This document shows positions 3,001 to 24,260 of a stretch of 64,000 bases of DNA, one piece after another. This stretch comes from Cenococcum geophilum (Eukaryota). The DNA lies in the NCBI GenBank assembly GCA_050273025.1, contig CP158635.1, forward strand, positions 6,386,001-6,450,000. Direction: 5' to 3'. How positions within the stretch are numbered: position 1 is the first letter of the stretch; every line of letters starts with the position of its first letter. The position numbers and the translations under genes were made by a program. The notes below the pieces were generated by a model. The model saw nothing but the letters and a program-made list of their open reading frames with translations. It had not been told where the DNA came from and did not search any database.

Positions 3001-5894
3001 CACCGCTGGCCCTAACGGACTAGTACCCACCCTTTTGGTTTACGGAGCCTACCTAAGGATAAGCAACCTAGGCCCCCCTGCCCCGTCTATTATAGAACGA
3101 GCAGCTATAATACGGAAGGTAATGGCCGAAATAGTTAAATTACGGGCTAAACAAACTATCAATAACGCCCTATACTACTGTAACGGACCTAATACAACCT
3201 TAGTATATAACCTCCCGCTTAACTCTAAAGTCCTTATATGGCGTAAAAGCGGCAGTTGGAATGGACCTTACCGTCTACTAGCCGTAGAAAACGAGACGTG
3301 CTGTGTATAGCTTTCTAGCAGGCCAACTAGCTTTAGAAGCACGTCCGTAAAACCCTACTTTCGGCCCAAAAACACCTATGACGTTGAGCTAGACGAACTA
3401 AAAGCAACTGCTGAACTAGACGAACTAGAAATGACTGCCAAATTAGACAAACTGGAGGCACCCTTGCCTACCCTAAAGGTCCCCTAGAAACCCACTGAAC
3501 CTACTAAACCTGCCGTAAAGCGTGGCCAAGGACGCCCCTATAAGAATCCTATAACGGAGAACTACCTAATCTCCGCAGGCATATCTGTAAAGCAATCTCC
3601 GTCTATGGATATATTAGTTCTAGTACAGGAAACCCCTTTTACGGACTTACGGCGTAAAGAGATTAACGGACTACTTAAAAAGGGTATCTTTGCAATTATA
3701 ACGGAGAGAGACGTTCTGTAAGGCGTCCGTATATTTAACTTACGCTTTATTGACGAGATTAAGCACCCTAGTACTAATAAAGCCTTTAAGAAATTAAGGC
3801 TCGTTATATAAGCTTATAATGACTAGGGAAAGGACCTAGTCCTTACGCAATCGCCTATAATTTAACGGGTCAGTTAACGGATTATACTCGCACTTATACC
3901 TGGACTATAGCAAACTAAATCTATAGCCCTTTACTTACGGGACATCTTATAAGCCTATGTGCAGTCTAATACCTACCTAAGTAGGGATATCTTTATACGA
4001 CCACCCTATGAGCTTAACCTATAACTAGGAATAATTTTATGGGTTATAAAACCTCTTTACGGAGTACCAGAAGCTGGAAACCATTGGTTTAAGACATACT
4101 ACCAGCACTACATCAGTAAACTCAAAATGGAACAGTCGACCTATAACCCTTGCCTCCTATACAGCCCATTAAACGGCCTTGGTATTATTGGACTCTAAAT
4201 AGATAATACCCTCTTCTTAGTAGACTGGATATTTATGGACGCTAAAGAGACTAAACTGCAAGAAGCTAAGTTCCTGGCAAAGCTATGAGAGTAGTTAACT
4301 AAGCAGACTCCAATTAAGTTTAACGGAGGCTTAATTATACAAAAGGGCAACTTAATCTAGCTAACCTAGGAACGCCAAGCTTAAAACCTAAAGCTTATTA
4401 TAGTAAAGCCTATAGACCTTACTAGTTCCCGCGGAGAGACCTGTAAGACTGTAAATATAAAAGACTAATACGCTGTATAGCGTGCAAGAGGCGCCTATAT
4501 TGCCATAGTCTGCCAACCCAAATCTGCCTACGACTTGTCCTTTACGGCCTAGGTAGTAGATCTATAAAAAGAAAATATCAAGCAGCTTAATAAGCGCATT
4601 TAGTGGCAAATTAACAATGTAGTAAGGGGACTTACTTTTGAACCACTAGACCTAAGTTCCCTTAGCTTACTGGCATTTACGGACGCCTCCTTTACTAATA
4701 ACAAAGACCTATTATTACAAATCGGCTTTATAATTGTACTTACGGACCGCAATTAGGACGCAAATATACTGTACTAGTCTTTAATTAAGTGTAAATAAGT
4801 AACCCGTAGTGTACTAGCTTCTAAACTATATATACTAGCTCATAAATTTAATATAGTAGCCGCAATCAAATTAACGGTCTAGAAGATTCTATAACTAGAG
4901 CAGTTACCCCTAGTTTTATGCACCAATTTAAAGTCCCTTTACAACTGCCTAGTTAAACTAGGTACGATATAAGAGAAGAGGCTTATAGTTGACCTAATGT
5001 GCTTATATCAGGCCTACGAACGACGTGAGATTACGGAGGTTAAATGGATTAGCAGCGGAGATAACCTAGCGGACGCCATAACTAAGGCAAAGCTGTGTCA
5101 AGCCCTTAAAACCCTAATTAATATAAATAAGCTCAACCTAAAAGTTATAGAATGGGTAGAACGGGACTAACGGAGTACCTATGGTACGCCTACGGCCCAT
5201 TAGAAGGCCGTATGGCTTATTATATGGCCTATTCTACGGACCGTAAGCTGTTAGGTGGAAAAACGGTGGAAAGCTGTAATAGAACTTAGTGGACTTACGT
5301 GACCTGCTGAATTCTGCCATATTCTGCTATAGTGGTCAAATTAACTAATTACAATTTTCCATGCCGGGTATGGAAAATCGCCATTGGCTTGCTTAGTACT
5401 AGCGCCTTAGCGGCCCTTAAAATCTAACTTACTGCCCGTTGAAAGGCCGTACGGTTTATTTTACGGACCGTAAGCAGGACTTACGGCCAGCTTAAGGTAC
5501 CGTTTGAAAGGCAGCCTAGACGGTACCTTAGGGGAGATTTTCTATGTATTTTCCTTTGTGTTCTATGGTTTTATTAAAGTAATTACGGAGGCTGTACACA
5601 GGTGGTTTTATTTTTTAAGTACTGCTAGTGTATAATTACAGTACCTGTTGTACTAAACGCGTGCTTACGCGTTTACGCGTTTAGTGCACTAACCACTTAC
5701 TTACGCGTCTGGTGCACTTATAAAGCACTAACTAATTAGGGGGGAGGTGCATCAGTATATAGACCACGTAGTCTGCTTTATATAATTGATAGTCACCATC
5801 CAAACAAGCATACGATACTACATGTATTTCGTGCCCGTGGATACGACTTACTCGTGCTATTAAGTTAGTACGAATAATTACTAATTGTCTAATA
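1..5894 (+). mobile_element. Ty1/copia LTR retrotransposon, RIP-inactivated; 5' end lies outside the window
   Basis: Copia domain order on +: gag zinc knuckle KCFMCGKEEC*SIRY (~1582), protease IIDIGAS (~1993), pre-integrase LYRRFGH (~2433), integrase (~2550-3300), RT GVRIFNLRFIDEIK (~3722), RNase H LAFTDASF..NKDL (~4670), ending EWVERD* at 5170. Confidence 0.9.
5629..5894 (+). repeat. Probable 3' LTR of the copia element
   Basis: Starts with TG downstream of the pol stop, contains TATA-like motifs and ends ..TCTAATA (RIP form of ..CA). The partner LTR is outside the window, so the limits are inferred. Confidence 0.5.
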
Positions 5895-5967
5895 TATTAT
5901 CCGCTTTACTATCTTTATAAGTCACTCTATACTATTCTACATTAAGCTTTTACCCGCTTATAAATAT

Positions 5968-8900
5968 ATAGGGTCCCTAACTATAATAGCGGCGCCATAT
6001 TTAGAATCTAGTTAGTACTTAACTACTATAACTAATAAGAACTTATTATAAATAAGTGGTCTAAAGCTGCAGTAAGGACTTATAATTAACAAAAAAATAT
6101 ATAATAAAATCCTCTAATACTATGCTAGCGAAATTAATAAAGCGTCTAGTAGTAAGTTGCTAACGTCCGGACCTATATAAAATGGAGTTAAGCGCATAGT
6201 CTTTGACCTTCTTAACACTAAGTATGGGCACGTGTTTAAGAGATCCGATTTACCATTAGAGTTTAAAGCTTTCGCTATCGCCGCCAAAAAATCTATATAA
6301 CGACACGTAACGACTAATAGACGTGGAGGCGTAGAGGTTATAATAACTGATGCTGTTTAAAAGCGTGGCGCCTTATCTTCTAGAGAGTAGTCTGTTAACT
6401 TATCTAGATTAAGGGTAACCTCCGAGGCTACCTAGGTGCTTGGTAATCTATATATTAAAGCCCTATAACAGCTAAATACTATACCTATACTATTTTATAA
6501 AATAAGCTTTGTTATATATAGTTACCTAAACAAAACGCCATTTACTAGAGCCCCCATTCTATACAGATTTGCATTAAAAACTAAGTATAAGCATCTATTG
6601 TCTGATTCTCTAGAGAAAATTAATATATATTACTATAGATATAATAAGCTATAGGCCGCGATAAGTGAAAACTTCTTAGCGGATAAATATAGGGATGGCT
6701 GGACTATAGTAGATCTAACCACTAGTATACTAATTCTCAACTATATAAACCTAGCATTTATAGTGCTTTCTGTAAAGAAGGCCGGACTTAATATAATTAT
6801 AATTGGAGTTAAAGATCCTAATCGGATTACAAAGCGTAAGAGACTTTATAATTTATAAGATTATATAATATTATATAGAGTTATCTAACGTATATTTACA
6901 GGCATAAGATTTAATGAGGGTGATTCTAAGTCTAACTCTAACCCTAATATTATATGACCGGTACTAACTAGGAGAAGAATAGATATACTTACCCTAGGTT
7001 AAAGTAGTCATAAGCAGTTAACCTTAGAGTCTACGCTACCTATACCTAAGCAGTTAAATCTAAAGCCTATATTAACCCTAAAGTCTACGCCACCTATACC
7101 TACTAATGCATTATTAGCCGTATGGCCGGCTATAATTAAAACTGCTCGTAGCTAGACCCGTAGTAGTAAAGACTAGCCCCTACTAGATAAATTAGAGCTC
7201 TTAAAAGGCGTGGATCTAGATAAAGTATAAACATTTAAGATAATACCATGGGATAAAATAAAAAGATGGTGTGATAAATAGCTAAAGTCTAATCGCAAAA
7301 TGTTTATTAATACATTATTTAAGGATATAAATAATAACCCTAACCTAATTTGTATTGGGGAAATTAATCTTAACTATATATAGGAGCGCCGCCACTTTAA
7401 CGCCTTAATTAACCCTATTTCGACTAACAAGGAACCGGAAGATAAGTATAAGGATAAAATTAAGGAGGTTAATTAGGAAGTTAATCACCTAAAGGACGTA
7501 TAAGAAGCATATATTAACCCAATATTATAGGTAAAGGCGCTATAGTTCCTCTCATTTCCGTTAACTATTCGCAATACTCTTTAAGACGTAACCTTCTATT
7601 TACACAACATAAAAAAGGGTAAAGCTATATAGACATATTAGCTGCTTAGTATTACCTATACTCTTCTTAATTATACAACCCTAGGTAGGACCTTTCTCGC
7701 GGATATAATGGGTTTAGGCAAAACACTTTAAATGCTTTTAATCTAGTACACCGGCGTATTAATAACCAAGATTAACCTTAACTAGCTTAATTAGAAAAAT
7801 CAAAAAGGTAGAGATAAAAGTCTCTACTTTACCCCTAGTATAGATAAACACCTGCAGCCGCCTAACGCCTAATGCCCGAGTTAAATAGATAGCATACTAT
7901 AGTGCTGTTATATTAAGGGAAGTATCGCCAGAAAATTTCTTAACCGGCTAGTAGGACCAACTATATACATTACTAGACAGAATCTACTGCCCTAAGCGGT
8001 TAAAGACGTTAAATTATGGTTTAAGACCTTAGAACTAAATAATTTTATTCCTAGAGGCAAACTATAAGTCCGCGTACGCCATACGGCTTTTATTAAGTCC
8101 AGCATAAAGAAGTATAATTTCACGGATAAAGATAGGGACATTCTTAAACCTATAAAATATAAAGGAGAAGGCGAAGTAGTCTAGTAGAAAATGGACCCAA
8201 GATCGGCTTTATATCTTATAATTACGACCTTACAAACTTAGGCAACAATCTAGACCGCTTAGGAATAGCATAAAACCATTTTTAATCTCTATAGAGATGG
8301 TGGTCCTCATTATATTGTTAGTGGGATTTTTACCAACGAGTTCTATATAGATAGGTTAGAGACAGGTTATTTAATGAAAATCGCCAAATAAGTATATAAT
8401 GATTAAGTAGTATTTCCTTACTTTTAATACCCAGGCCAGTCTTATAAGGACGGCAATGGTAAAATAACCTACTATACCTCTCGACCTTTAGTAGTGTTTA
8501 CTTCCAGTACGCTAACTAGCGAAGGTTTTACAAGTTTAATTCCCGCCTTAGAAATTTTTAGGGCCCCTAATTAGACGGATTCCCTAAATACAAAATTAAT
8601 TAATAATTATAATGTTAAAGCATTAATTAAATATAAAAAGCTAGGAGCAGCTAATTGCTCTTCTCTTCCGAACAAGGTTATTACAGGCTTTAAAGAATGC
8701 TCCTCTTTAATTACAAAGGTCTTAATTATACATAGGATGGGGGAAGACCAATAGTTTAATAGGAGGGTAATTAATAAGCTACCACTGGTCGTCTACTAAG
8801 ACTGCTATATAATGAACGATTTAATATTCAAACCATATATTAAGAAGCTCTGGCGTGGAGCATCCCTAAAAGCTTTTAAACAGCTAAATAAAGCTTTTAG

Positions 8901-9800
8901 ACACTAGAAAGCTAAAAGAAGAAAAAAAGAAGAACCCGTCTTTAATATAGATTAATTTCTAGAGGGAGCCGGTTACTTATTAAAAAATTTTGCTATCTTT
9001 CTAGGCCTAGCTAAGGTAGGAAATAAGTGGCAGAATATATGGTGGAAGGATGAGACAAAAGTTAGAATAAAGCTAAGGTAGATAGTTAACAAGTTCTATA
9101 GCAAAAAATGGGATAAACCTTTAGATAAGAATCTACTTTAGAAGAATTAGAGCATAATTGCTAACTCCAGGAAACTAAATAGAATTATAAAATACGTTAA
9201 TAAAGTACTTAAAAGGAATCCTAATAAGAGACTACTATTTAGTAGTTACGAACTAGCGGCATATACGCTATTACGCCTTATAAGTTAGCTATTAGACTAG
9301 TAGTAAACTATTACTAATAATGTAATATAGTATTTCTATAAAAGGCTTAGCTAGTCTAAATATTTAACTGTTTACCAGATAGAGTCTAGGACATCCCTAA
9401 AAGACTAGAAGGATATCTACAAAGCGTTTTATATTTTAATAGGCGGTTTTTACTAGAATAATATGGTCTAGTTTTTTATTATTAACTAAAGAGTTAGAGG
9501 AGAGGGTCTAAATTTGGTCTCTACGCATAGAGTTTATCTACTTAAACTGGCGACAATAGTAGATATAGAGGTGTAAGTGTTCGGCTAAGCTGCTAGATCT
9601 AGATAGCTAGCGCTAGTAGTTATTACGTTAACAACGTATAGTACGGATAAGTGGAACCCAATTAATATAGTTATATTAGCGAGGCGTATAATAACTAAAA
9701 GGATAATAATTAATAAGTTCTATAAAGTATTTAAAGCCTAACCTACTTAGTAGGCTAATAATAATATAATAGAAATAGCGTAGCTAGTGCAGTTAGAGTA
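5968..9800 (+). pseudogene. SNF2-family (SF2) ATPase/helicase, ~1,250 codons, RIP-inactivated
   Basis: All motifs lie in one frame: Q motif TY*LLSI (~7633); motif I GRTFLADIMGLGKTL (7684-7728); motif II GIFTNEFY = DEFH (~8323-8346); motif III SSTL = SGTP (~8503); SRKL = SGKL (~9166); 51-nt intron 9280-9330; motif V RGEGLNL (9496-9516); motif VI *VFG*AARSR* = QVFGRAARSGQ (9574-9606). Confidence 0.88.
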
Positions 9801-10669
9801 GCGACCCCCTGTAATAAGAGTATGTCTTAGCATAATGTATATATATATAGACAATATGCAACTATTTAATATTTTGTAATATATTATCTTAGTATTAACT
9901 ACCTTATAACTAACTAAACCTTAAAAAGTTTAAATTTTATCCAGATTAATATTACTCCAGCCATTAACTACCTTAACACCTATTAAGTAATCTAGCCTAT
10001 AACCCTACTAACTCTTATTCCTAATATACATTAACAATTCCTATTAAGGTATATCCTTTCTACTAATAGACTATATATATATGCTATCTTTATTATTCTA
10101 AAAGCCTAATCAGTATATAAGAGGATCATCCCATAACTAAAGCTCCCTTTATATCTCGAATTATTATAAGAAGTAAAACAGCATTAGAACAGATAAACTA
10201 ACATTTATAACTACCGCTTTTGTCTGCCGATTATACAGTTATAGCGCATATACGTAGTTGTCTGCTATGAGGGGGAACCGTTAGTAGTGGTTTTTGAGAT
10301 CTCACTATCCCATATAAAACTTTCACTACTGCCTATAACGTCTTAATAACCACTAGCTCCTACCTATACGCTATATAACGTCTATATAAAATCCCTAATA
10401 GTAAAGAAAAGCGTACCCTAATTATTCTATTTAATCTACCTCCTGCCTTTTTTTATTAGTGTAAGATATTGAATTAACCTATAATATAATACTGACTGGA
10501 ATAATTGGCAAACCTAGCTCCGCTAGACAAATATGCTTAATTATAAGGACTAAAACCCCATTACTATTAAGCTTATTATGCTATAAAATAAAAGGGCTAT
10601 TATTAATATTGGTATGTTTTAAAGGTACTTTATTAGCCAGCACTAACAGATATAAGTTAATGGACTATT

Positions 10670-11203
10670 TACCACTTTATGTTTAATGGTTCTAAGAATA
10701 ACAGGGCAAAATATACTATTATTCGTTATGCTCTTACCAACTATAATATTTAATTTATTATAGGCTAGAAATTTAACCTTAAAGATAAGCAAAAGGCAGA
10801 CTTTTAGGATATATTAGATATGTTACGGACGAAACCTTTATATAACCTACCCGCATTAGAACACCTTAATAGCAGTACTATACTATTAGATTTCGCTATT
10901 AGGCATTAGTAACCGAGCAACCTTAAATCTTCCCCTCGTTGCCCAGCCCTAAGCCTTATTACGTTGCTAAGACTCATTACATCATTGAGTTTTATTGCAT
11001 TGCCGCTAAGCCTTATTACGTTACTAAGCCTTATTACATTATTAAGTCTCATTACATCGCCAAGCCTTATTACGTCGCCGAGCCTTATTACATCGTTAAG
11101 TCTCATTATATTGCCGAGTCTTATTACATCGCCGTTAAGCCTTATTACGTTATCGAGCCCTATTGCATCGCCGCCGAGCCTCCTAGCCAGATTAAGCAAT
11201 TAG
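10670..11203 (+). pseudogene. RIP-decayed unknown gene fragment ending in a Ser/Pro-rich repeat tail
   Basis: De-RIPed frame reads ..IIRYALADYDIQFIMGWKFDLEDEQKADFWDILDMLRTKP.. and runs into SPSPIT-like repeats. I recognise no family. Confidence 0.35.
10947..11180. repeat. 18/21-bp tandem array, about 12 units (consensus ~GCCGAGCCTTATTACATC)
   Basis: Units are directly visible. Unit lengths are multiples of 3, which explains the overlapping ORFs listed at 10906-11307. Confidence 0.9.
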
Positions 11204-12260
11204 ACGTCGCGTATTTAACTCCTAGGCATAGCGGGTTCAATTCCCACTCGTCGCGCATTAAAAATATTAAAAATATTAAAAAAGAAGGTTGTTTTCTATT
11301 AAATTAGGCGTTAGTAAGGCTCTAAATTAAGCTCATATTTTCGTATATGTCCCGCAACGCCTAAAGTCATATATTTGACGAAATCTCAGCACTATATACT
11401 AAGCATATCGGCTCTTCTATGTTAAGTTTTAATTATATTGGGCTAGCTCTAAATTATAGCAAGAGGCAGAATGTACTATACTACTATGTTATAAAGACTT
11501 TGGAATATAATCTTATAAATTTAACTAAATTATAACCCCTTCCTAAACCTCACGATTAAACTAGATCCTTAGGGAGAGATCCCTATATTAAATCTTAGGG
11601 AACGTTCGGTTGCGACTTTAGATTAAATCTAAAGGCCGTAGAATATATCTAAGCTAAAGCTTAAATCTGATTCTAACGCGATTATTTAGTCAATCTGGCG
11701 ACTTTCTGATCCGAAAGCTCCTCTAAATCGGCAAGTGCGTTAAATTCGCAAGCTATACCGTATATAGAATCTAAATTTATAAATATAGGGTATCTCTATT
11801 ACTGTAGTGGCTACTACAGTAACGGGGGCGCCATATTTCAGTGAGTAGTTAATCTGCTATATCTCTGCCACTGTAGTAGCAAGGCACCTTAAGTTCAATA
11901 CCACGCCAAGCATTATAACTTTCTTGCAGTAACTGAGCAACCCTAAACTAAAGCGATTGTAGAACTTACTATGCTACTACGCCGTAAAGGCCCTTAGTTA
12001 TAGTCTTATGAATTTAATTAAAATATAAACACCTTCCTAAATCTAACGATTAAATATTTCTATATGCAACACTATGCCAAGGATTATAATATAGATTGCT
12101 TAGATATGGCTTTACTATAATATAACGGCTCTACGCTAATCGATTGATCTATAAGAGATTTAGGTAGTAAAATTACTGCTAAGAGTTACTGCCTAGATCC
12201 TGGCCGATAAATACCTATAACTATAATCTTAGTAAATGGCAAAAAGTATATAGCAGTACC

Positions 12261-12588
12261 GAGATAATAGCAGGATAATATAAGATAATAATAGGATAAT
12301 ATAATATAATGGTAGGATAATAACAGGATAATATAATATAATAGTAGGATAATGATAGGACAATATAATATAATAGCAGGACAATAGTAGGATAATGTTA
12401 GGACAATATAATATAATGGTAGGGCGATAATAGGATAATATAATATAATGGTAGGATAATGTAATATAATAGTAGGATAATGTGATATAATAGTAGGATA
12501 ATATAATATAATGGTAGGACAATATGGGACAATATAGGACAATATGATATAATGGTAGGATAATAGCAGGATAATATAAGATAATATA
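12261..12588. repeat. Degenerate 10/11-bp (21-bp higher-order) tandem array; pre-RIP unit ~ATGGGACAAT/GGTGGGACAAT
   Basis: Repeated GGATAATATAATATAATGGTA. The least-mutated units (AATATGGGACAATATAGGAC) are at ~12,520-12,545. Confidence 0.85.
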
Positions 12589-12744
12589 AAAAAATAAAAT
12601 ATAAGATATAAAAAGAGGGAGCCCTAACACTTCCTCTTCTTTCTACTTTTACGGCCCTGGCGCCTAATATAGTGTAATATTGTCTATCCATATAAGCGAT
12701 AGTATTAAGACGGTTAGAAGTATTAGGAAATTTTATAAAGTATA

Positions 12745-13905
12745 TATTACTTTAAGTAATATACCTAAATAACTAGTCTAGTGTATGGTTTGTATAACAT
12801 ATAATAATAACGGGGGGATCTCCTATTGTTATATTGCTAAGCAACGCCTTTAAAGCCACGTTTTTCTAGTGCCTAGAGGTCTTTGGATTATTATAAGACG
12901 CTTTATAAGAACTCGTTTTAGTATAGTGGCTTAAGATTTGTTAAGCCCTATAGTAGTTATATCTAACCAGTCTTTAAAAATGTAAACATTCTTAAATAAG
13001 GAAGTATTCTTAATAGCTATAATTAAACTAAGATCCGTATAAGGCTTATTTATGACGTATTATAGTACTTTAATATTCTATTAAACTTAAATAAGGTGTT
13101 TTAATAACGGGAATCTATTAGTGGTTAGATATCTTCTTATTTAGAAAACATTACACACTTATAGCTCTCTTATTAGCTTTTGTAATGCTAATATAGTATA
13201 ATAACTAACTTTATAAAATCTAGTTTATTCCTTAACTATCGTCCATAATACGGATAAGTTAATCTTAATATCTTTAGGTCTTAAAGAATAAGTTAACCTC
13301 TAGAGGATTCTGTTCTAATGCGGCTAATAGTCTCGCCGCCACTATTACGAGTATATATTTCGTTTGAAAATTGTTAGTCTTAGGAGTTAAAGCAACTAGA
13401 GACCTAGTGATTAGTCTTTTTAACTAATCCTAATAGATTATCTTCCCTACTCTCCTAAGTAAGAACGCCACGCAGATTACTAGCCCTTAAGGTGAAAATA
13501 TTACTAAGCTAGTATAGACCTTGTAGATGTTAGGGGATAACTGCTTTAGAATTATAGCAGGCTTACCTGTTTATATATACCGACTCCATTACTATATCCA
13601 GATTCCAGCAAACTAAAAAGGGTTTGCTCTAATTTGACCTACTACCTCTCTTAACGGTTTAATCGTGTCTTCTTTTAAAAGATTGTATTAAGAGCTTAGA
13701 TACTCCTTTATTAAGCCATATAGACCTAAGATCTTATTAACTTATAGTAGAATATCTCCGTTTTTGCTAATGATATTCTGGCCCTTATTAGGGATATTAA
13801 GTATTTTGGTAGAGGTTAGGACCTCTAATCGTACTAACTAGGCTCTACTAGTTATAGGCTGACTAGGCGTCTTAAAGTATTAGTAAATATAGTTACTAGT
13901 ACATA
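12745..13905 (-). pseudogene. 5' fragment of an Hrr1/SAD-3-type (UPF1/ZNFX1-like SF1) RNA helicase, RIP-inactivated and truncated
   Basis: De-RIPed minus frame: W..EVPTSAEIL..NKISGPYGSIEEYLSSQYDLLKEDTIKPLREVV, intron, VAFSLGRVGKIIRWDQSKRLITGSLVALTP..VAARPL..LEQNPPEVDLFF..EERTGFYE..HTMLALQKLMREP, intron, FPLSKHL..RLAIIQGPPGTGKT (Walker A 12,859-12,885)..DPPVII.CHTNHALDQLFRHI. Similarity stops before the DEAA motif. Confidence 0.85.
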
Positions 13906-14279
13906 TTAAGCTGCCTAGAAAGGATTTATATATATAGAACTATAGCACTATAGCCTAGAGGCTGTATACGCATTATTATACGTAATATAATATAATAAAT
14001 ATATAAAAAATATATAAAAAAAAAGTATTGATAAATCTGGGTGCTGAATTGAGCTTATAGACGGAGACGTAAAAGGAATAGGAGGTTGTAAGTCTGGGTG
14101 GTATAGTGGGTGAAGAAGCGTTTGCTAATACGCTTATTTATTTCTTATAAGACATTTAACTAATTATTTTATATAATAACTAAACAATATACCTGTCTAC
14201 ATAATTCTATACATTAGTCTTGGCGCGTAATTAAGACGTCTTTCCTACCGTACCTCCCCTAACGCTTCTAGAATTATAG

Positions 14280-16083
14280 CACTAATAATAGACCTAAGCT
14301 ATGACACTAAAGACACTCTTAAGCGAGATCTAGGGCTTATGAACGAATAATACAATACGATTTACTATAATGTTGAAATCAAAATGTCGACGCGTGGGCT
14401 CCTTAGATAGCTACTACGCTCCCTTATAAGTAAGGCATAAATACGGCAAATATCAAACGAAATCTCTAATGAATTCCTATCTGTGTTTCTAGGTTTACCT
14501 AAGAACCTACGTACTAAATATGTTAAATAGCTTGCCTAGCGCTATAGCTATAACGCGATGCGTTGAACAAACAAAACGGCTCCTACTAGGCAAATTATAA
14601 TAGGCAACTTAGTACTCCTACACTCCGCTATTGCATATTATCTACTAGCCGGCATACTAAAGGTAATAAGGTAGGAGGGAATACTAAGGTTATATAGAAT
14701 AATAATAATACTAATCCGGTAGGTAGCTAATGAAGAGCTAATAATTATCCTAATCCAAAAGCTAGCGACTAGTAAGAATAACGCTCTAAATATACACGTT
14801 AATAATCTAAGCTTTAATACATTTATAAACATGCTAGGCTAGGATATTAACTTTAACCCTAAGAGCGAAACGCTTTGCTACTATGTTGGCGATAAAATAG
14901 CTAGAGGATGAATTCAGCTTATAAATAAAGAGAAATAGCGCAGTATAGTTAAGGATATATTTCTATAAGAAATAGATAGGTTTTTATTTATAATAGAATA
15001 AAGAAGAACAAGTAGGTTACTGCTTAAAGTTAAGCCAGCGTCACTAACTCGTATTTATAGTCTGCGCTACTAGCTAAGAACAATATAATTACTTACCCTC
15101 TATTTCCGTACCCTTGCCTTTACTAGACAACTCGTACTCTATATATATAAGAATAGGTAGAACTAGTAAACAGGTTAATACTAAGGTAATACTTAACCTA
15201 TAGCTGTCCTAAAAAACCTCTCCTAGTTAAAAAAGAGCCCTTACTCTACGCCTTAACCCATAATAGAAAAGGCGAAGGTAACTATAACTATAGCATGGAT
15301 TATGCGCCTTAAAGCCACTACTTTATCTAGAATACTTACTAGTTTAATAGATCACTATATATAAAGGTAGACGGCTTAATAGAGCCCCTTAGTGTACTAT
15401 TAGGTAAGGGAGTCTTAGAACAATATAACCCGAGATATTCTTATAACTTATCCGGCATTCTTAAAACGCCTAAGGGGATTAGACGATAAAGCCTAAGGTT
15501 TATACCCGTTCTTTTTAGTAAACTTATTAGGGTAATATATATTAATACCGTCCCTAGTTCACTCTTAGTATCTAACACCTAATCCTTATATCTATACTTG
15601 CGCTTTCCTTACTATTTTACTAAATTTAATTACTATTGCGATATATATATAGGGGATAGGTTAGGCTTACTATAGGCTAGTGGGGTTAACAACGCGGAAG
15701 AATAACGTTGGATATTTATGGTAGAAATACTAGGTATTGTATAAGGGTGTAAAATATGGCGATATAACTATATAGAAGTGTAATTGCTATCCTATATACC
15801 GCCTATGCCTACCCTAGTATTATCTACACTAGCAAGCTATATAGATAAGGTAGATAAGCTTTACTTTAAGCGCGAGACGGGTGTTAAACCTAGTATAGGT
15901 GGACTGGAATAAAGTATAGGATCTAAAAGCCAGCGCCTTAGGTAGGTAAAGTGGTTTAATAAGGTACCTCCCTATTAAATTTAGACATAAGCCTTACTAG
16001 CCTACTACTTTTATTGCCGGGATTAACGTTTAACCTTTTATATATATATACCATATCTATTAAGGGATATACTAATAGAATAA
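14280..16083 (+). pseudogene. One or two RIP-decayed genes of unknown function
   Basis: Long protein-like + frames (~14,280-15,060 and ~15,294-16,083) whose stops are RIP-type TAA/TAG, e.g. LKRDLGL.NE.YDTIY.NVEIKMSTRGLL. No family recognised. Confidence 0.4.
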
Positions 16084-16706
16084 AATAGTTTCGCGTATAA
16101 TAGTAAATAGTATTAGACAATCTTTAACTATACAATAATATTTTCTTAACTACTAACTTAACGCGAGTTAATAGGTTATAGTCGCGGCTTAACCGTAACC
16201 AGTTAAAACTAGCAGCTAATTATAATAAATACACCCCTATTTAAGTTATTTGCAAGCACTATAGCAATAATACTCCTACTAATACTGCTATTAGTCCAAT
16301 ATATACCATACCAGTATATATTTTTTTAAGTTATTAATCTATATACGCCCTAGATATTACAAAAACAGCTATAAGGTAACCTATTCTAGCTATAAGCTAT
16401 ACCTTCTACTAACTAGGCAAATATAGGAGTGTTACTATAGCAGGTAAACGTAAAAATGTGTTATTAAACACTTAAACTAGTAGCAAGAACCCTACTTTAA
16501 GTTAATATAAAATAAGGAAATAAGGATAACTAGTATAATTAACCTTATGTCTTTACCTAGCCTACTACTAGGAGTTACCTATGTCCTAGCTAACGGAAGG
16601 AAGAATACGCTAATAGAGAATAAGTATATAGAACTTAGCTAGGATAAGTATATAGAACCTAGCTAAAATAAGCACGTAGAACCTAGCTAGAACGAGTAAT
16701 ATTATA

Positions 16707-17012
16707 ACTCTAGTCTAGTTATATCTAGGCGTAAAGAGGAGCAGGCACGTAATAGACCCCGTTAATATTAAATATAATATATTAAGCTAGCTAATAATGT
16801 ATAGAATATATATAGCCGCCTCCGGCTTAAAAGGGTAATATCTAATAATAAGAATAGCGACTCTAGTCTAGTTATATCTGGGCGTAGAGAGAAGTAGGTA
16901 TATAATAGACCCTATTAATGTTATATATAATATATTAAGCTGGCTAATAATATATAGAATGTATATGGCCGCCTCCGGCTAAAAAGGGTAATCTTTAATA
17001 ATAAGGATAGTA
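16707..17012. repeat. 153-bp direct tandem duplication (2 copies)
   Basis: ACTCTAGTCTAGTTATATCT.. starts at 16,707 and at 16,860; the copies differ mostly by transitions. Confidence 0.9.
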
Positions 17013-18744
17013 ACTATAAGTCTACACCTACTTCTTCTATAAAACGACAGCGACTAAATATTAATAAATCTACTAAATCTATTAATGATCTAGTAGTAGA
17101 ACTAGCTCAGTTAAAGATATAAAGTCCCAATTTTTTAGTTAAGGTAGGTTATACCTTTATACATAACCAGAGTCTAACTATAATACTTAATAGTCTCCTC
17201 TACTATTTAGCACTTGGCGAGCCCTAGTAAATAAAATACTCTCTTTACTATTTAACCGCCCACCGCTATAAAAAGCAGCATCTTTATAATATACCTCTGG
17301 CTCTTAATAATTATGTATTAGTTTAAAATACTCTCTTACGCGCCTAATCCGTACCTTACCGCGTAAATAATTGCGTACTAGTTTAAAATACTCTTTCGCG
17401 CGCCTAATCTAAACCTTATTGCGTAAATAACTAATATTTAGCTTTATATTCTCCCTAGTAAGCCATGTTTGCCTAAACCCTAATATAGCTTCGTCTATAA
17501 AATAAGTAACCTCCCTCTAATATAGAGTACACTAATCTAGTGTTCAATCTAAAGGGGACCTAGATAGCACTAGGGAAAGTAAGGATAAGTTAGACTATAA
17601 CGATTTTAACCTAACTGCCATAATACGGGTAAGAGAAGAGTACCTCTAAACATTATAACGGCGATATATAAAAGAAAACCCACCTAAGAGATATAAGCCT
17701 ATATTTACGCTTTATAGGTCTATTTTATTAACAAGGCTAGTAACTAACTCTAGGACTTATAACGGGTATCTTATTAACCTATAGTTTAACCGCTTTCTAA
17801 GCCTTATTAAGGATATAATAAAAAAGGCATAGTTAGAAGCTATTTTAAAGCAGCCAAAAGTAGTATAAAAAAAAGCTAATCGTATTTCTGACCCGGTGTC
17901 CACTTATAAGGTATCTATATACTAGAAATATTGTATTAAATTATCCACTAATAATCTTAATATTATATATAGCTATTTAATGTAATAGGGAACTTTAGGA
18001 ACTACGTAATTATAAAGGCTTATATAGTTATAAGGGAGGTATATAGGCTAGGGTTTAACAACGCGCCCAAACTAATCGTAGAACTACTAACTAATTATAA
18101 TTTTATTGCGCTAGATTATATAAAGGTATTTTGCCCGTGCTATTTAGTAAAATGCTAATAAAAGTTAATAGCTAAGTAATAACCGCTTCCGTTCTAACGT
18201 AATAGTTGCTAGCATAGCTAGTATATTTTACGGTAAAGGAAGAAACGGCCTTACCTAATTACCCTACTCTTATAATATGTTTAAAAAGCTTACTAGTAAT
18301 ACTATTGCTTTTATTTTAATAGCAATATATTATACAATTAGGGAGTATAGAACTAGGTCTAAGGGAATAAATAACTTTTATAGCACTATTATTAGCGGTT
18401 AGTATATATCTGGTATTTTACTACCTATTATTATTCTCTAACCCGTTATAGAAGCCTATGCTAACCTCTTAGGCAGCTAAAACTAGATATTTAGAAAACG
18501 GCAATTTAGAATCTAGCTGCGGCTTTAGCCCGTAGTTATTAAATATACTATAGGCCTAATACCAGATTAATTAACTATAGAAATTATTAAGGACCCGTAT
18601 AAAGATAACCTTAACAACCTTATAGCGGATCTAAGCAATAATATAAGAGAGAGGTTCCTTATAAGCCTTAGCAATAATAAAACTGACGTAATTATTAACT
18701 TAGGCTATTTATTAGTGAGCCGGGCTATACTATCTAATTTACTA

Positions 18745-18875
18745 AGTTTATCTTAAAGGGAAAGCTCTAGAGTAGGCTAGACTAGTTTACTAAGTCTATC
18801 CTAAATAGAGAGCTCTAGAGTAGGCCAGACTAGTCCACTAAGTCCGTTTTAAAGGGAGAGCCCTAGAGTAAGCTA
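18745..18875. repeat. 42-bp tandem repeat, about 3 copies
   Basis: The unit ~AGAGCTCTAGAGTAGGCCAGACTAGTCCACTAAGTC recurs at 42-bp spacing. Confidence 0.8.
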
Positions 18876-19597
18876 GAAAATCTAGGGCCCTACTACTACT
18901 ATAATATTTACTAATTTAACTTTTAGAACTAGCTAAGTTTGTTAAATTTAGCAGAATATACATCCTCTGCCCTAGTATACCACTTTATCCTAAATATAGG
19001 AACCAGCAAGCCTAGGCTAGAAAGGTTTAAATCTAATAAGTTATTTATATAATTTAAGCAGTACTATAGCCTTGCAGAGAATAGCTATAGCTAGTATAAT
19101 AACGGAAAAGTAATATTAAATTTAATTAAGAATAAGGAGTAGTATATAAAGTTTATAATATATACTCTGGACTCTAGTATAGAGGAGCTGGTAGAGTTTT
19201 TAGTAGAAAATTAGGTGTAGGACTTTTTATACTCTCCTATAGGATGACTGCGGCTTCTTTATTATATATACTAGCTCTTAATCTACCTTTCTTTTAGCCT
19301 ATATCTGCTACTCTTAGTAGCTACTTTTTAGCTATATATATATGCTATACTAGTAAAGCTAAATACTTATAGTATATTATTATCGTAGGGAGAGTAGGAA
19401 AGGTCTTATACTTTTAGAATATATTATAAAACAGTTGGGATATTATATTAAATTGTCTAAAATAATATAATAGATTATATAAAAAAGTGTATATAATTTG
19501 CCTTGCTAGCCTTATAAATAGCTTTAAAGTAGCCTTTGTTTATTATCTAAAATATACTGTTAGTATAAAAGAGGTAGATAGCTCTAAATACAATTGT

Positions 19598-19667
19598 GGT
19601 TGCAGGTTGCGTGTAGGTTGCGCGCAGGTTGCGCGCAGGTTACGCGCAGGCTGCACGCAGGCTGCGT
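19598..19667. repeat. 11-bp GC-rich tandem array (GGTTGCGCGCA), about 5-6 units
   Basis: Directly visible. It marks the right edge of the multigene cassette and is only weakly RIP-mutated. Confidence 0.85.
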
Positions 19668-20269
19668 GTCAAAAAAACACGACATAGGCTAGTCGGTTAA
19701 GTTGCTAAATGCCCTCAACTGCGCGCCAATTGCGTCAACCACCAACCATTGAGGCCATTGGTAGGGTACCATATTTTGCCGATAATACTTTTTATTTATA
19801 ACTAATAAAAGCTAAATTCTACCTTTTATTAGTAATATATAGAAATAGGTAGTTCTATATTAGTTTTATTTTGATATTTTTATATAGGTAATATATAAAG
19901 TAATTTTCTAATTTTTCTTCTACTTTATACCTTTAAAGCCTATTTAATCCTCTACCATTAATAATATGTTATTCTTTTCTTAACGATAATTTTAACTTAT
20001 TGCTTTAGCTTTACTAAATAAAGAAGCGGGCTTAGAAATAACTTAGCGCGTCTTTAATCCTAAATTTCCACTTCTAGACTAGGTTAATAGTAGATCTTAA
20101 TACTATTAAGGATCTTATTAAGGAATAGCATGTAGAGATAACAAGATTAGGTGCTACTATTAAGGAGTTTAAGGAGTTTAATAGGTTTATTATAGTATAT
20201 AATAGAAACTTATAAATCTAATTCTATTTTAATATATCTATCCCTTAACCCGCTAACGTTTATAAAGTA

Positions 20270-21273
20270 AGCAGTCTATATAGAACACTAAGATTAGAGT
20301 AACGCGTATAGGCCGCATAGATTTAATTAATATAAACCATTAAGTATGCCTTCTAATTGTACTTCTAATAATATAGACCTTGTTAAGCTGACTCAATATA
20401 ACGTTTAACTAAATCGTATTTTAAAAAATCGTCTCCTAGAGCCTTAGCCATTGCCTAATTTCAACCCTCTTTATATTAGCTATATACTCCTAAGCACGAC
20501 AATTTTAATACATTGATTTGGTAAATCCTAATCGATAATATGTAGACGAATTTTGGCGGATTAAGGGATAAGGGTAATAGTCCTACTCGGCCCTATATAA
20601 ACAGCGCTTAAATAGTAGCTTAAATTCTAGGTAGGGTACCTATCTTAATCTTATACAAAGAGCTATTACTATCTTCTTAATTTTACTAATATTAACTAAG
20701 CTAGAACTAGTATTTTCTAGCTTAAAGTATAAAAGGATACCTAAAAGGATATACTTAAAGGTAATAATAGTAGAGATAACGGAGTATATAAAGAGCTAAG
20801 TAAAGATAACACTAGAGATAGAGTAGGCTCCCTTAAGCGGCGTTTTTAGGTAGAGTTACTTTATTGATAAAGTAGTATATAGAGATAACTCTAAGGGCTA
20901 AGGGTTCACTAGAAGAGGTTCTAAAGTAATATTATATATTTATGGCTAGCTGCAGAGGTATTAAGGGACGTAGAAGAGAGTCTCCTTTATATTTAAGGTA
21001 TTTATCTAGCTAATTTAATACCTAAAGTAGTTATAATATAATATTATATATAACTAATAGCGTATAAGTTAAAATCTACCTCTCTACTATTAAAACTTAT
21101 TAAAATATTAAAATTAACTTAAAATAGAGACCTATTTTAGTTTCTATATTTCTATATATTTCTATCATCTATTAGAAAAAGTTTCCTTTTACTATTTATC
21201 TAATATTGACTTCTAAGTTAATAGAAACTATTCTACTCTTTACTCTTTTATTCTCTATTTTATATATAGTATC
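20270..21273 (+). mobile_element. Internally deleted DNA-transposon relic, possibly piggyBac-like
   Basis: ATGCCTTCTAATTGTACTTCTAATAATATAG at 20,346 is homologous to 60,569. The MPSNRTS..PLP.F.PL N-terminus and a decayed Cys-rich tail resemble fungal piggyBac transposases. Termini not resolved. Confidence 0.35.
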
Positions 21274-21810
21274 TATAAGGTATAACGGAACCTTATAGCA
21301 GGAACTACAATAGGCTCATTATTAGGCTAGGTGTGTAGGTGATATAAGTTAAAGTCAACAATAAATAACAACTAGTGGAGTGGTTGCCTAATAGATTAAC
21401 TCTAATTGTATTCTAAAAATCACTATAAGGAAGGAACTATTTAGGTAGGGACTAAGGGTCCTTAAATACACAATCGTACTCCTATAAAATCCTTCTTATA
21501 CGTAATATACGTCTTATATATAAGGTACGTAAGTTCCTCTTATTCCCCTTATTTAATATATAGCATATTATATAACCTTAATTACTATTCCTTATTATAT
21601 AGTTCTATTGGCTCTATCCTAGACCATACCTAAATTAACCAACTAGCTTCTTCCGACTCCTCTCTAAGTAGTTATAATATTATACTTAAAGCGTCCGTAA
21701 CACTATCTCCCTCCCTTTTATCTTTGTCCTTAAAGATTTAAAATATCTCTAAGTTGTTTACTAGAGGTATAATATCCATTTAATTAATTTGGTTAATATC
21801 TTTACTTATT

Positions 21811-22484
21811 ATACCTAAAGTAATTTCTTCTTTACACGCCCAACGTCGTGCTCGCACTATTACTGCAATATTATCTCTTAGCGAGATTATACCGTCTTCG
21901 TGTTCGCGTTGTTTAAAAGAGGGGTTAGTTTATATTGCGTTGGCGAACCTATCTTTATAATAACTATTCTCTTACTTAAAGTGCACTAAAGCGAATATTT
22001 ATTTATCCTATAACGTTTACTTTACTTCTAATGCTAAATATACGTAACCTATTACTCTTAATAGTTATCTAGTTCCCTAATTAATTTGTCTTAGGGTCTC
22101 GTATTTAATCTACTGCTATATAGCTAGATAGTAAACTGTCTTAAGCCCTTACTAAGTTAGAACGTTCTTGGGATGCGGAATAAAAGGCCTTAGATACTCG
22201 TCTGCTCGCTTGCTCCGTCTTAAGAAGGTTTATAAAAAGGTCTGTTTTAAGGAATAGAAACTTATAAAATAGGGTCTATAGGAACTTAGTAATAAAAGAA
22301 CGGATTCTCTTTTAATAGAGAAGGAAATAGATCTAAGTAGTTCAGCAACTGCTCTTCTTAGGTCCCCTTTAGGTAACTTATTCTTTAGTAATCCTTCTTT
22401 ATTAATACTACCTAACCTAATTTCTTCCGATACTCCTATACCTTTCCTATAGTATTCTTTAAATTTTTTAGTAGTTTTTAGGTA
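21811..22484 (+). pseudogene. Antisense accessory gene of A1 (Cys6 cluster + coiled coil, one intron)
   Basis: De-RIP reading: MPKVISSSHAQRRARTIAAILSLGEIMPSSCSRCSKEGLVCIAL..SSCSECTKANI.SSCDV.SASDAE, 55-nt intron, WSRIQSAA.RLDGELSQALAELERS... The end is approximate. Confidence 0.7.
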
Positions 22485-24260
22485 GTCTTAGTATAGCCTA
22501 TCTACTTAACCTTATACCATATTTTATTATTAACGTCCTTATAACTAACGATCTTTAAAACTTATTATTTATCTTCTTCCTATCCTCTATATGTATCTAC
22601 TTTATAAACCGGTGGCTTAATATTCCTGTATACTAGCTCTAGTATTGCAATATGCTATATAGGGTAGATCTTTATTTTGGCTAGTAGGTTTAACTTAAAT
22701 ATAACCAGTAAAATTCTCTATATAATTTTAAAAGGTTTTAGTCTAACGTAGTCTAACTTTTTACTTAGTTATCGACTCTTAAAATTTTTGTATAATAGCT
22801 ATACTTTATCTCCCTCCTTAAGATCTAGTCCCTTAGATTTCTTATTATTATAGTACCTTTTTATTCTCTCTTATACTTTCTTTACTAATTCTATAAGGTC
22901 TATATAAAGATTTATTAATATCTTTATCCTTTCTTTAGCTGTGCTACTTATTTTCTTCGCTTATTATAGTAATAACGATATTCTTAGCTTATACCCGTAA
23001 TTTGCCTTAAATAGTAATATACCTATTCCTTCTTAAGGTGTTGCATTATATATAAACTATATAACTAGTAATAATAATACCTAATTATTCTATGCGTAAT
23101 TAATATAGTGCCTTAAATACTATTCTAGCGTCTAATTTAATCTTTCTATTTAACCGTCTGTCTGCGGATAATATGCGGTAGAAGTTACTGCTCTAACTCC
23201 TTATTCCGCTAAGAATACCTTCTAAAATGCTACTATGAATCTTAGATCTCTATCCAATATAATCTTACTTAGTACTCTATATCTTATAAATACTTCTTTA
23301 ATATAGATTCTAGCGACATCTTCTACTAATATTTCTTCCGTACATGCTATAAAGTATCCCTACTTTATAAGCTTATCTATTATTACTAAGATCGCATTAT
23401 AATTTTGTTTAGTAATAGGATCTTTTAATTTTAGTAACTTAATAATAAAGTCCTATAATATAACCTCCTATAGTCTCTCTGGTATTTTAATAGGTTATAG
23501 CCCTCTATATAGCTTATACCTTATTAGTTTATTTCTTTAGCAATCTAAATATTCCTTAGTAATTTTTCGCGCTAAGCCCTAGATTTTATTAATAATATAC
23601 TTATTACGGACGCTTTAAGTACAATATTACGACTACTTGGGGAAGAGTTAGAAGAAGCTAGTTAGTTAATTTAGGCACAGTCTAGGATGGAGCCGGTAGA
23701 ACTATATAACAAGGAATGGTAACTGAGGTTATATAATGTGCTATATATTAAATAAGAGGAATAAGAGGAACTTACGTACCTTATATATAAGACGTATATT
23801 ACGTATAAGAAGGATTTTATAGAAGTACGGTTATGTATTTAAGGACCCTTAGTCCCTACCTAGATAGTCCCTTCCTTATAGTAATTCTTAGAATATAATT
23901 AGAGTTAATCTATTAGGCAACCACTCCACTAGTTATTATTACATTGTTAACTTTTATACTTGCATTTCCTATACACCTAGCCTATTAATAAGCCCATCGT
24001 AGTTCCTACTACAAGGTTCCGTTACACAATTACTACTACGGTTATAGTATTAATATAGAAAGTCAAATAACATGCCACCAAAAGCAGCTACCACAACGCT
24101 ATTAACGGCGGCAACTACTTTAAGGTTAAGTAACGACACTAGTATAATAGACACTAACTTATAGCAACCTATAACGGTTAGACAGCTATAAGAGATAGTT
24201 AACTAGTTAACAGAAAATAATGCGATGTTAGAAAATAGGATTAATAGAATAGGCGCAGTA

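Follow-up and report, generated by a model that had tools for sequence, protein, structure and literature searches.

A dead copy of a large dispersed repeat

The interval at 5895–19770 of the window (the whole 64-kb stretch of Cenococcum geophilum DNA analysed here, from contig CP158635.1) belongs to a large dispersed repeat family, of which it is one dead copy truncated on the left. The family is coherent over at least about 12.7 kb and occurs in several strains of this transposable element-rich ascomycete, where each genome holds dozens to more than 100 diverged copies. The unit measures 13.9 kb by the limits of the initial annotation and at least about 12.7 kb by coherent depth. Its features and those of its surroundings, in window positions, are:

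1–5894, plus strand: context, RIP-mutated copia-type LTR retrotransposon that runs off the left window edge (rve, E = 8.2e-4)
5895–19770: RIP-mutated copy of the dispersed multicopy repeat unit (RIP indices, flat summed contig depth)
5896–9850, plus strand: candidate SNF2-like ATPase frame relic, about 1300 codons, in the frame of base 5401 (stop count, profile match)
10949–11172: tandem array, 18-nt unit with 54-nt higher order, about 11 copies
12262–12614: AT-rich array with 11/21/32-nt periods, abutting the truncated end of the ZNFX1-like fragment
12758–13747, minus strand: N-terminal fragment of a ZNFX1/Hrr1/SAD-3-type SF1 helicase gene (Pfam PF25396, PDB)
16617–17430: cluster of three arrays, listed next
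16617–16692: 24 nt × 3.2
16707–17010: 153 nt × 2
17306–17430: 60 nt × 2.1
18160–18405, plus strand: relic of a DUF6532-like gene, with the domain's C-terminal part (Pfam PF20149)
18734–18877: 48-nt × 3 array
19602–19666: GC-rich 11-nt × 5.9 minisatellite, GCAGGTTGCGC
21280–45106: context, nested copies of a single LTR retrotransposon whose LTRs measure about 425 bp (within-window repeat comparison)

Copy number, coherence and RIP state

Contigs from four public runs (X1, X5, X6 and X21) were aligned to the window at 80% likeness, and every part of the interval was covered by tens of distinct contigs at 80–99% likeness in each run. Summed contig depth, which by the tool's own caution is not a copy number, was flat over 6335–19007 in X1, X5 and X6, at roughly 100-plus times single-contig depth. 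Across 18 bins of this stretch, with the low-complexity bin at 13672–14338 excluded, it ranged over 12.0–19.0 thousand in X1, 607–916 in X5 and 8.0–16.1 thousand in X6; for contigs that match the window exactly, depth was 77–84 in X1 and 5.2 in X5. At single sites, 13–42 distinct contigs carry an alternative base in the four runs (33, 23, 42 and 13 contigs at site 8376 in X1, X5, X6 and X21, respectively), and transitions make up 2899 of the 2983 variant places in X1 (about 97%). The summed depth of the flanks differs 10- to 80-fold from that of the interval: in X1 it is 132–328 thousand on the left, 1.2 thousand at 20342–21008 and 0.8–1.2 million from 21009 onwards, the copia element being 10–25 times as deep as the interval and the LTR nest about 80 times as deep in X1. 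Taken together, the flat depth, the many contigs per site and the differing flanks indicate one coherent dispersed repeat, in keeping with the initial suggestion that the block is or was multicopy. Other copies carry nested insertions of their own, since in some contigs interval positions 13878, 17907, 19331, 19466 and 19780 are joined to LTR ends (near 21283 and 21700). Inside the 64-kb window no second copy of the interval was found, and the stretch is present at least partly in 20 of 24 listed runs, from nine studies; runs X1–X4 may represent the source sample.

The heavy RIP mutation originally read from the letters of 5895–19770 is confirmed by the dinucleotide indices, with TA/AT at 1.57, (CA+TG)/(AC+GT) at 0.51 and GC at 0.32, compared with 0.73–0.76 and 1.26–1.28 for the two ratios in neighbouring genes. 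The composite RIP index, calculated per 1 kb, ranges from +0.49 to +1.56 over 6–20 kb, compared with −0.37 to −0.71 for the genes at 51–56 kb and 61–64 kb, which are un-mutated, and the RIP block far exceeds the interval, extending over 1–51 kb of the window. The minisatellite at 19602–19666 sits in a patch of about 180 nt (19600–19780) in which CpA dinucleotides are still kept. On the left, the unit is cut by the copia element, which interrupts or abuts it; the copia insertion proposed at this position is supported by the rve match and by a gag–IN–RT–RNase H order read by eye. The right end lies, with some uncertainty, somewhere from about 19.0 to 20.4 kb.

Gene relics and tandem arrays

The relic at 5896–9850 may represent a SNF2-like ATPase gene, an identification that is marginal. 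One plus-strand frame there has stops in 71 of 1318 codons, compared with 149 and 189 stops in the other two plus-strand frames, and it contains GLGKT at 7696–7725 and a motif V–VI region at 9490–9609 (motifs named by eye). A profile built from 9349–9828 and seven fragments of other copies matched only Snf2-family ATPases in PDB (21 of 21 matches at E ≤ 10), the best being FUN30 (E = 8.5e-4); a single-sequence phmmer search of PDB and a mid-region profile searched against PDB each returned no Snf2 protein. Pfam SNF2_N and Helicase_C had no match in the read-through frames of the window (E ≤ 0.01), and Helicase_C reached E = 0.058 in one of 42 fragments of other copies. These fragments are the 42 phmmer matches to the frame, all 41–161 aa long and covering query residues 1–966 (window 6901–9798); six were traced, all to metagenome contigs of 575–1104 nt. 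Neither the protein searches nor a set of 1.84 billion representatives yielded an intact full-length relative.

On the opposite strand, the ZNFX1-type fragment at 12758–13747 comprises the ZNFX1 domain and the start of the helicase core, with PF25396 matching at 13277–13522 (E = 7.6e-11; 42.4 bits, cut-off 27) and a CYTNHxLD motif at 12767–12817. Its top PDB match is human ZNFX1 (9q9z_A, E = 0.0061) in two collinear pieces, query 20–58 on residues 440–478 and query 325–349 on residues 732–756, and downstream of the fragment there was no Pfam match to AAA_11 or AAA_12. The DUF6532-like relic rests on a PF20149 match (E = 1.1e-4, 22.6 bits, just below the cut-off of 24) that spans profile positions 106–184 of 194. 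Five or more genes had been proposed for the interval: the ZNFX1/Hrr1/SAD-3-type fragment, the DUF6532-like gene and, marginally, the SNF2-like gene have tool support, and the putative ‘Ser/Pro-repeat protein’ is an in-frame reading of the 18-nt tandem array. The interspersed tandem arrays of the same proposal were recovered, with seven located between 10949 and 19666.

Search for a mobilising enzyme and termini

Six stop-read-through frames of 5401–21002 were scanned with Pfam (E ≤ 1, one scan at E ≤ 0.01) and gave no match to a transposase (PF18759 of Plavaka, KDZ or other DDE) or to gag/pol, reverse transcriptase, integrase, RNase H, tyrosine recombinase or Rep/Hel. DUF3435 had no match in the read-through frames scanned, and UBC (Rad6-type), RING and HIRAN domains had none in the frames of the interval. 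Since these scans also failed to pick up the SNF2 relic, the Pfam negatives carry little weight; at that sensitivity they agree with the initial annotation, which had seen no gag/pol or DDE motif here. Among the HMM profiles suggested there, DUF6532 came out just below its cut-off, and SNF2_N, Helicase_C, DUF3435, KDZ/Plavaka and tyrosine recombinase gave no match. Terminal inverted or direct repeats of at least 50 nt were not found, even after recoding as purines and pyrimidines, which makes the comparison blind to RIP, nor was any LTR or target-site duplication that bounds the unit. That the block belongs to a large mobile element is plausible, although neither a mobilising enzyme nor any of these terminal features was detected.

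Comparison with known systems

As far as published descriptions allow comparison, the closest analogue is X3X3R8 of Parastagonospora (Stagonospora) nodorum (Hane and Oliver 2010, PMC3017866), a 26-kb repeat described as multicopy and affected by RIP, whose genes include Rad5/SNF2-like helicases and a Rad6-like gene alongside unknown ORFs. By that description both are long, multicopy, RIP-affected multi-gene units of filamentous ascomycetes, built around a SNF2-type helicase and uncharacterised ORFs (both putative here), with no recognised transposase. In contrast to the Rad5-like helicases and the Rad6-type ubiquitin-conjugating gene of X3X3R8, the interval shows no UBC, RING or HIRAN match and has different partners, the ZNFX1-type fragment and the DUF6532-like gene; intact genes are described as surviving in some X3X3R8 copies, whereas none survives in this copy of the interval.

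Giant Plavaka elements of red algae are described as 17–19 kb long with accessory genes and tandem arrays (bioRxiv 10.1101/2025.02.11.637652), and Plavaka/CACTA-EnSpm (CMCT clade) DNA transposons with accessory genes are reported from fungi (PMC12730594). Like these, as described, the interval is large and present in many copies, has tandem arrays at internal or subterminal positions, and bears accessory genes with a potential to modify chromatin or DNA. The hallmarks given for such elements are the DDE transposase PF18759, termini TGT..ACA or CATCA..TGATG and 2–3 bp duplications; the interval differs in that its frames have no PF18759 match and its left end is missing. Our literature search found no published Plavaka with a SNF2 gene, SNF2 being co-mentioned in another context.

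Two further systems offer parallels. RLx_Ayoly of Leptosphaeria maculans, listed as 10.4 kb, 164 copies, superfamily unknown, with 217-bp LTRs and RIP-degraded (PMC3105345), is likewise, by analogy only, a long repeat of moderate abundance that defies classification, in a genome shaped by RIP; unlike in that repeat, no LTRs were found in the interval, the 425-bp-LTR elements of our window have no counterpart in the L. maculans table of that paper, and contig totals of 146–241 Mb indicate a genome far larger than that of L. maculans. AcademH elements (Kojima 2020, as cited in PMC10045372 and PMC10799480) are fungal DNA transposons with a superfamily-2 helicase beside the transposase. They are reported to have few copies in fungi and to carry DEAD and Helicase_C domains, whereas the interval family is high-copy with a helicase relic of apparent Snf2 type, and an Academ transposase was not seen in the interval.

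Origin of the repeat

Our best explanation, offered tentatively, is that the interval is the dead remnant of part of a giant CACTA/Plavaka-type DNA transposon that carried accessory genes, or of a non-autonomous derivative. Traits of the unit that recall such elements are its seven internal tandem arrays, its more than 12 kb with accessory genes and its truncated host-type gene fragment. The host-like look of the genes, and the detection of neither mobilising enzyme nor termini, would also fit an amplified host gene cluster that is no transposon in itself: a chromosomal segment (SNF2-like, DUF6532 and neighbours) that recombination, subtelomeric exchange or passive carriage copied many times before RIP mutated it. 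For such a cluster X3X3R8, read as an endogenous gene cluster in its description (PMC3017866), provides a published precedent. We regard such a cluster as unlikely: dozens to more than 100 copies with independent nested insertions are many for segmental duplication, the depth is flat and changes abruptly on both sides, no UBC (Rad6-type) domain is found in the interval, and the ZNFX1-type gene is a fragment ending in a tandem array, which capture fits better than a duplicated intact locus. It is also rather improbable that two or more unrelated repeat families (e.g. one SNF2-bearing and one DUF6532-bearing) lie side by side, with depth equal by coincidence or within a co-amplified nest. Genes on both strands with arrays between them, the failure to find unit-wide termini and the nesting usual in this RIP block would suit such a composite, but the depth is confined to the X1 and X5 ranges given above across 18 bins and 12.7 kb, all neighbouring families are 10- to 80-fold off, and equal depth of unrelated families in three strains would have to be coincidence.

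A large retroelement or unclassified element, with machinery in the missing left part or mutated past recognition, recalls RLx_Ayoly in size and copy number (PMC3105345), and the insensitivity of Pfam on this DNA, where the SNF2 relic was missed, leaves it some room; we consider it improbable, given that about 14 kb yields neither an LTR-like direct repeat nor a match to RT, IN or RNase H, that the copia element in the same RIP block still yields an rve match, and that the genes lie on both strands. Starships are low-copy elements of tens to hundreds of kilobases. A Starship-type fragment, with its DUF3435 tyrosine recombinase (‘captain’) to the left of the window, would account for multi-gene host-like cargo and for a left part that is unseen, but the flat depth, the dozens to more than 100 copies of an approximately 13-kb unit and the lack of a DUF3435 match in the frames scanned make this initial proposal very unlikely. 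Single-copy host genes mutated only by RIP leakage from adjoining retrotransposons would fit a window with no second copy of the interval, but 42 fragments of other copies occur in public protein sets, and the tens of distinct contigs per run exclude this explanation.

The unit carried a putative long SNF2-like ATPase gene and a DUF6532-like gene; a ZNFX1/Hrr1/SAD-3-type helicase gene, represented by its N-terminal third, lies on the opposite strand, and several tandem arrays separate the genes. If the CACTA/Plavaka-type reading is correct, the interval would derive from the interior and right-hand side of a giant cut-and-paste CACTA/EnSpm–Plavaka element, or of a non-autonomous derivative, with accessory genes on board and a fragment of a host helicase gene captured by the element. 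Its DDE transposase may have been encoded in sequence now missing on the far side of the copia insertion, or supplied in trans by other copies. Each burst of copying would have exposed the copies to RIP, which has inactivated every reading frame. More speculatively, a cargo of SNF2 and silencing-helicase genes might have served to manipulate host defence.

A dispersed multicopy unit

The interval at 5895-19770 is present in dozens to more than 100 diverged copies that are equally abundant along about 12.7 kb, which argues for a single unit over a patchwork. When public sequencing runs (X1-X24) were searched with 7000-16999, 20 of the 24 listed, from nine studies, contained part of this stretch, and the four best-matching runs may be the source sample. 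Contigs of four runs (X1, X5, X6 and X21) were placed on 3000-22999 at 80% likeness, and their depths were summed bin by bin.

Contig depth along 6335-19007 (18 bins, low-complexity bin left out); summed contig depth is not equivalent to copy number
Summed, X1: 12.0-19.0 thousand
Summed, X5: 607-916
Summed, X6: 8.0-16.1 thousand
Summed, X21: mostly 130-310
Single contigs: X1 77-84 and X5 5.2 (both identical to the window); X21 5-8

At individual sites the alternative base is carried by 13-42 distinct contigs, and transitions account for 2899 of the 2983 places that vary in X1. Other contigs join LTR ends to the interval at 13878, 17907, 19331, 19466 and 19780; these are nested insertions that other copies carry on their own account, and the copies are therefore dispersed. 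The multicopy state that the initial annotation had deduced from the sequence alone is thus borne out by summed depth, by the contigs per site and by the LTR junctions, and an origin of the block as single-copy genes hit by RIP leakage is excluded by the dozens to more than 100 diverged copies.

The exact locus is absent from X21, which holds 0.02 of the locus words, while the repeat family is still present there. Depth in this run is 13-23 at 12338-13671 as against about 130-300 elsewhere in the interval; a reading of the tandem array and ZNFX1-type fragment as a variable module was set aside, as poor cover is no evidence. Across X1-X24, which share a species label, the share of interval words ranges from 0.62 to 0.01, so that strains differ in this copy or in its precise RIP pattern. 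The contig totals of the runs, 146-241 Mb, suggest a very large, repeat-rich genome.

Boundaries and neighbouring elements

The main features of the interval and its surroundings are as follows.

1 to about 5.9 kb, plus strand: copia-type retrotransposon
5896-9850, plus strand: SNF2-like frame
12262-12614: tandem array
12758-13747, minus strand: ZNFX1-type fragment
18160-18405, plus strand: DUF6532-like relic
21280-45106, both orientations: nest of a single LTR retrotransposon, in at least 4-5 whole or partial copies

The copia-type element (rve, E=8.2e-4; gag-IN-RT-RNaseH order by eye) continues beyond the left end of the window, and the left edge of the interval is therefore an insertion breakpoint and not a terminus. 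On the right, contig depth brackets the end of the unit to about 19.0-20.4 kb. In X1 the summed depth is 132-328 thousand over the copia flank, 1.2 thousand at 20342-21008 and 0.8-1.2 million over the LTR element, the nest reaching about 80 times the depth of the interval. Depth is also higher at 13672-14338 and 19008-20341, coinciding with low-complexity AT-rich sequence that may inflate it, and a terminal repeat at these places was not adopted; a boundary near 19503-19553, indicated by loose contig ends, was rejected, the loose letters resembling the sequence of the window itself apart from an indel. Inside the window we found no second copy of the interval and no LTR or inverted terminal repeat of at least 50 nt belonging to it, purine/pyrimidine coding included.

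The nested LTR retrotransposon has LTRs of about 425 bp. Its internal regions are 83-87% identical as DNA, and the re-scored pairs are 98-100% identical in purine/pyrimidine coding, so the divergence consists almost purely of RIP transitions. A suggestion that the TE families of the window are those of Leptosphaeria maculans was rejected on misfitting LTR sizes and genome size.

Several smaller repeats lie in the same region. About 88 nt are shared, in the same orientation and at 92% in purine/pyrimidine coding, by 20313-20399, where repeated DNA yields to low-depth DNA to the right of the interval, and 60535-60622, at the right edge of a second RIP block beside intact genes; this stretch may represent the end of a different repeat family. 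Immediately beyond the LTR nest, 45100-45323 and 45523-45746 are inverted repeats of about 224 nt at 84% identity, with about 200 nt between them, and resemble a small TIR or foldback element. Further on, a direct repeat of about 205 nt (48081-48285 and 49507-49693, 89% identical) surrounds a 1.4-kb stretch within the RIP block that is GC-richer (0.42-0.49) and less mutated.

RIP mutation and tandem arrays

Computed in 1-kb windows, the composite RIP index is above zero (0.49-1.58) across 1-51 kb and again over about 56-60 kb, and it lies between -0.37 and -0.71 where genes are present, at 51-56 kb and 61-64 kb. The interval as a whole has a TA/AT of 1.57, a (CA+TG)/(AC+GT) of 0.51 and a GC content of 0.32, compared with 0.73-0.76 and 1.26-1.28 for the two dinucleotide ratios in two gene controls, in agreement with the heavy RIP first described for this block. 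Only eight ORFs of at least 80 aa occur in the first 24 kb, four of them within tandem arrays. Interspersed arrays had likewise been described, and seven are found in the unit. One of them, an 18-nt array read in frame, is what had been annotated as a Ser/Pro-repeat protein.

Within the interval, a 119-nt direct repeat (11444-11561 and 11938-12055, 91% in purine/pyrimidine coding) surrounds two overlapping palindromes at 11775-11880, and may represent either an inserted foldback element of small size or a structured piece of the unit. A GC-rich patch at 19600-19780, made up of an 11-nt minisatellite and about 110 nt, keeps many CpA amid heavily RIP-mutated DNA; Rfam and tRNA scans, which included this patch, gave no match.

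Gene relics

The plus-strand frame at 5896-9850 holds 71 stops in 1318 codons, where its two companion plus frames hold 149 and 189. In it GLGKT (7696-7725) precedes a GxGLNL...R.R motif region (9490-9609), as in Snf2 proteins, the motifs being named by eye. Outside this frame, stop-density maps gave no decisive reading frame, and a count of TGA alone, taken as a 'non-RIP' stop, could not tell frames apart, TGA being too rare here. A profile (A2) built from 9349-9828 and seven fragments of other copies matched Snf2-family ATPases in the PDB in 21 of 21 cases at E<=10, aligned on motifs V-VI and of marginal significance; FUN30 (E=8.5e-4) and SsoRad54 (4.6e-3) came first, then Rad26, Fft3, ATRX, CSB and CHD1. 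Against this, no Pfam family, including SNF2_N (PF00176) and Helicase_C, was found at E<=0.01 in the plus frames of 5401-12002, Helicase_C appeared in just one of 42 fragments of other copies (E=0.058), a single-sequence phmmer search of the PDB with the frame gave no Snf2 protein, and a mid-region profile (A3) gave no Snf2 match there. It is plausible that RIP damage accounts for the missing Pfam matches. Weighing frame bias, motif order and the A2 profile against the Pfam, phmmer and A3 results, we regard the relic, with moderate confidence, as SNF2-like.

A phmmer search with this frame among 1.84 billion representatives returned no full-length relative and 42 matches, all fragments of 41-161 aa on query residues 1-966. 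They are pieces of ORFs from other mutated copies, and the six that were looked up came from metagenome contigs of 575-1104 nt. Protein homology searches for longer homologues with query P0040, the A2 profile and the ZNFX1 region found none, which is weak evidence. Two further metagenome contigs (L001:1-1830 and L002:1-2425) encode relatives of the C-terminal half, so that the SNF2-like gene family exists outside C. geophilum. Both are un-RIPped (TA/AT 0.80-0.81), and the gene, with several frameshifts and stops, has decayed without RIP in another organism. Their likeness to the window is confined to 8698-9738 and thus gives no information on conserved gene order, and Pfam found in them only Peptidase_C39 (E=0.023, under its cut-off), which is uninformative.

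Stop-read-through translations (stops as X) of all six frames of 5401-21002 contained two meaningful Pfam matches. One is the ZNFX1 domain (PF25396) at 13277-13522 on the minus strand (E=7.6e-11, 42.4 bits, cut-off 27). A PDB search with this region ranked human ZNFX1 first (9q9z_A, E=0.0061), and the two are collinear, a YxxLLKEDxxxPLRE stretch falling on residues 440-478 and PPVIIICYTNHTLD on residues 732-756. No helicase core (AAA_11/AAA_12) follows the domain in the minus frames of 8401-15002, and the frame runs into the tandem array, so the piece is an N-terminal fragment and not a gene. This bears out the earlier description of an Hrr1/SAD-3 fragment. The other match, DUF6532 (PF20149) on the plus strand, falls just short of its cut-off (E=1.1e-4, 22.6 bits against 24) and covers profile positions 106-184 of 194; a literature search on DUF6532 found no related publication.

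Class of element

Among known kinds, the unit is best, if tentatively, matched by a large class II element of the CACTA/EnSpm-Plavaka group. It is long and abundant, has genes in both orientations, seven tandem arrays and a truncated fragment of a host-type gene, and thereby shows the large size, accessory genes, internal or subterminal arrays and many copies of CMCT elements. Giant Plavaka elements of 17-19 kb with accessory genes and arrays are described from red algae (bioRxiv 10.1101/2025.02.11.637652), and fungal families and their termini are treated in PMC12730594; a literature search for Plavaka together with SNF2 found no publication linking the two. The termini that mark such elements are TGT..ACA, CATCA..TGATG or CACTA inverted repeats with a 2-3 bp target-site duplication. 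The assignment to this group stays tentative because the frames scanned hold no transposase and the left terminus is cut off by the copia element. Neither PF18759 nor an EnSpm-type DDE transposase was found in six frames of 5401-21002, an absence that weighs little given RIP and the missing left part; the same scans gave no gag/pol, as had been noted by eye.

The main rival is an amplified endogenous gene cluster like X3X3R8 of P. nodorum, a repeat described as 26 kb long, multicopy and RIP-affected (PMC3017866). It carries a Rad6-like gene and unknown ORFs beside its Rad5/SNF2-like helicases, and that account reads it as an amplified endogenous cluster. It is the closest published analogue in kind, sharing with the interval its multicopy state, RIP and a SNF2-type helicase gene. 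For the Rad6-type ubiquitin-conjugating gene and the Rad5-type (RING/HIRAN) helicase of X3X3R8, the six frames of 5401-21002 gave no UQ_con, RING or HIRAN match. We consider such an origin possible but unlikely. A composite of unrelated repeat families, which would fit poorly with the equal abundance along the unit, appears improbable. So, to a slightly greater degree, does an unclassified retroelement resembling RLx_Ayoly (PMC3105345): the interval has no direct terminal repeat of an LTR retrotransposon, and no RT, IN or RNase H match occurs within 5.9-21 kb.

Starships carry a DUF3435 tyrosine-recombinase captain at one end, have low copy numbers and span tens to hundreds of kb. The initial annotation, whose description was largely accurate, had suggested a Starship-like or another helicase-encoding element. 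The scanned frames hold no DUF3435 match, the unit has dozens to more than 100 copies, and a Starship fragment is very unlikely.

Possible counter-defence and significance

A more speculative proposal, to which we give little credence, is that of a putative, previously undescribed family of counter-defence giant ascomycete transposons combining a Snf2-type remodeller of their own with an antisense-oriented, truncated copy of the host's silencing helicase (ZNFX1/Hrr1/SAD-3 type), or else of DDE-free, helicase-based mobilisation. In the counter-defence proposal the remodeller would keep the element's own chromatin open or protected, and the helicase fragment would serve as decoy, as dominant-negative or as a trigger drawing RIP or silencing onto the host gene.

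Fungal repeat libraries usually list as 'unknown' those long, RIP-degraded repeats that have host-like genes and no recognisable transposase. The present block of this kind is coherent over at least 12.7 kb and occurs in dozens to more than 100 copies, with relics of an SNF2-type remodeller gene and a DUF6532 gene and a piece of an RNA-silencing-type helicase. The helicase fragment holds a second interest, in that a repeat containing part of a host defence gene can attract RIP to the host copy. Accessory genes published to date on giant DNA transposons are TET/JBP genes in basidiomycetes and Pezizomycetes, and methylase and oxygenase genes in red algae. If a transposase and transposon ends prove to be present in full copies, giant DNA transposons of ascomycetes would be documented as carriers of accessory chromatin and silencing genes, and the old puzzle of X3X3R8 would gain a mechanism.
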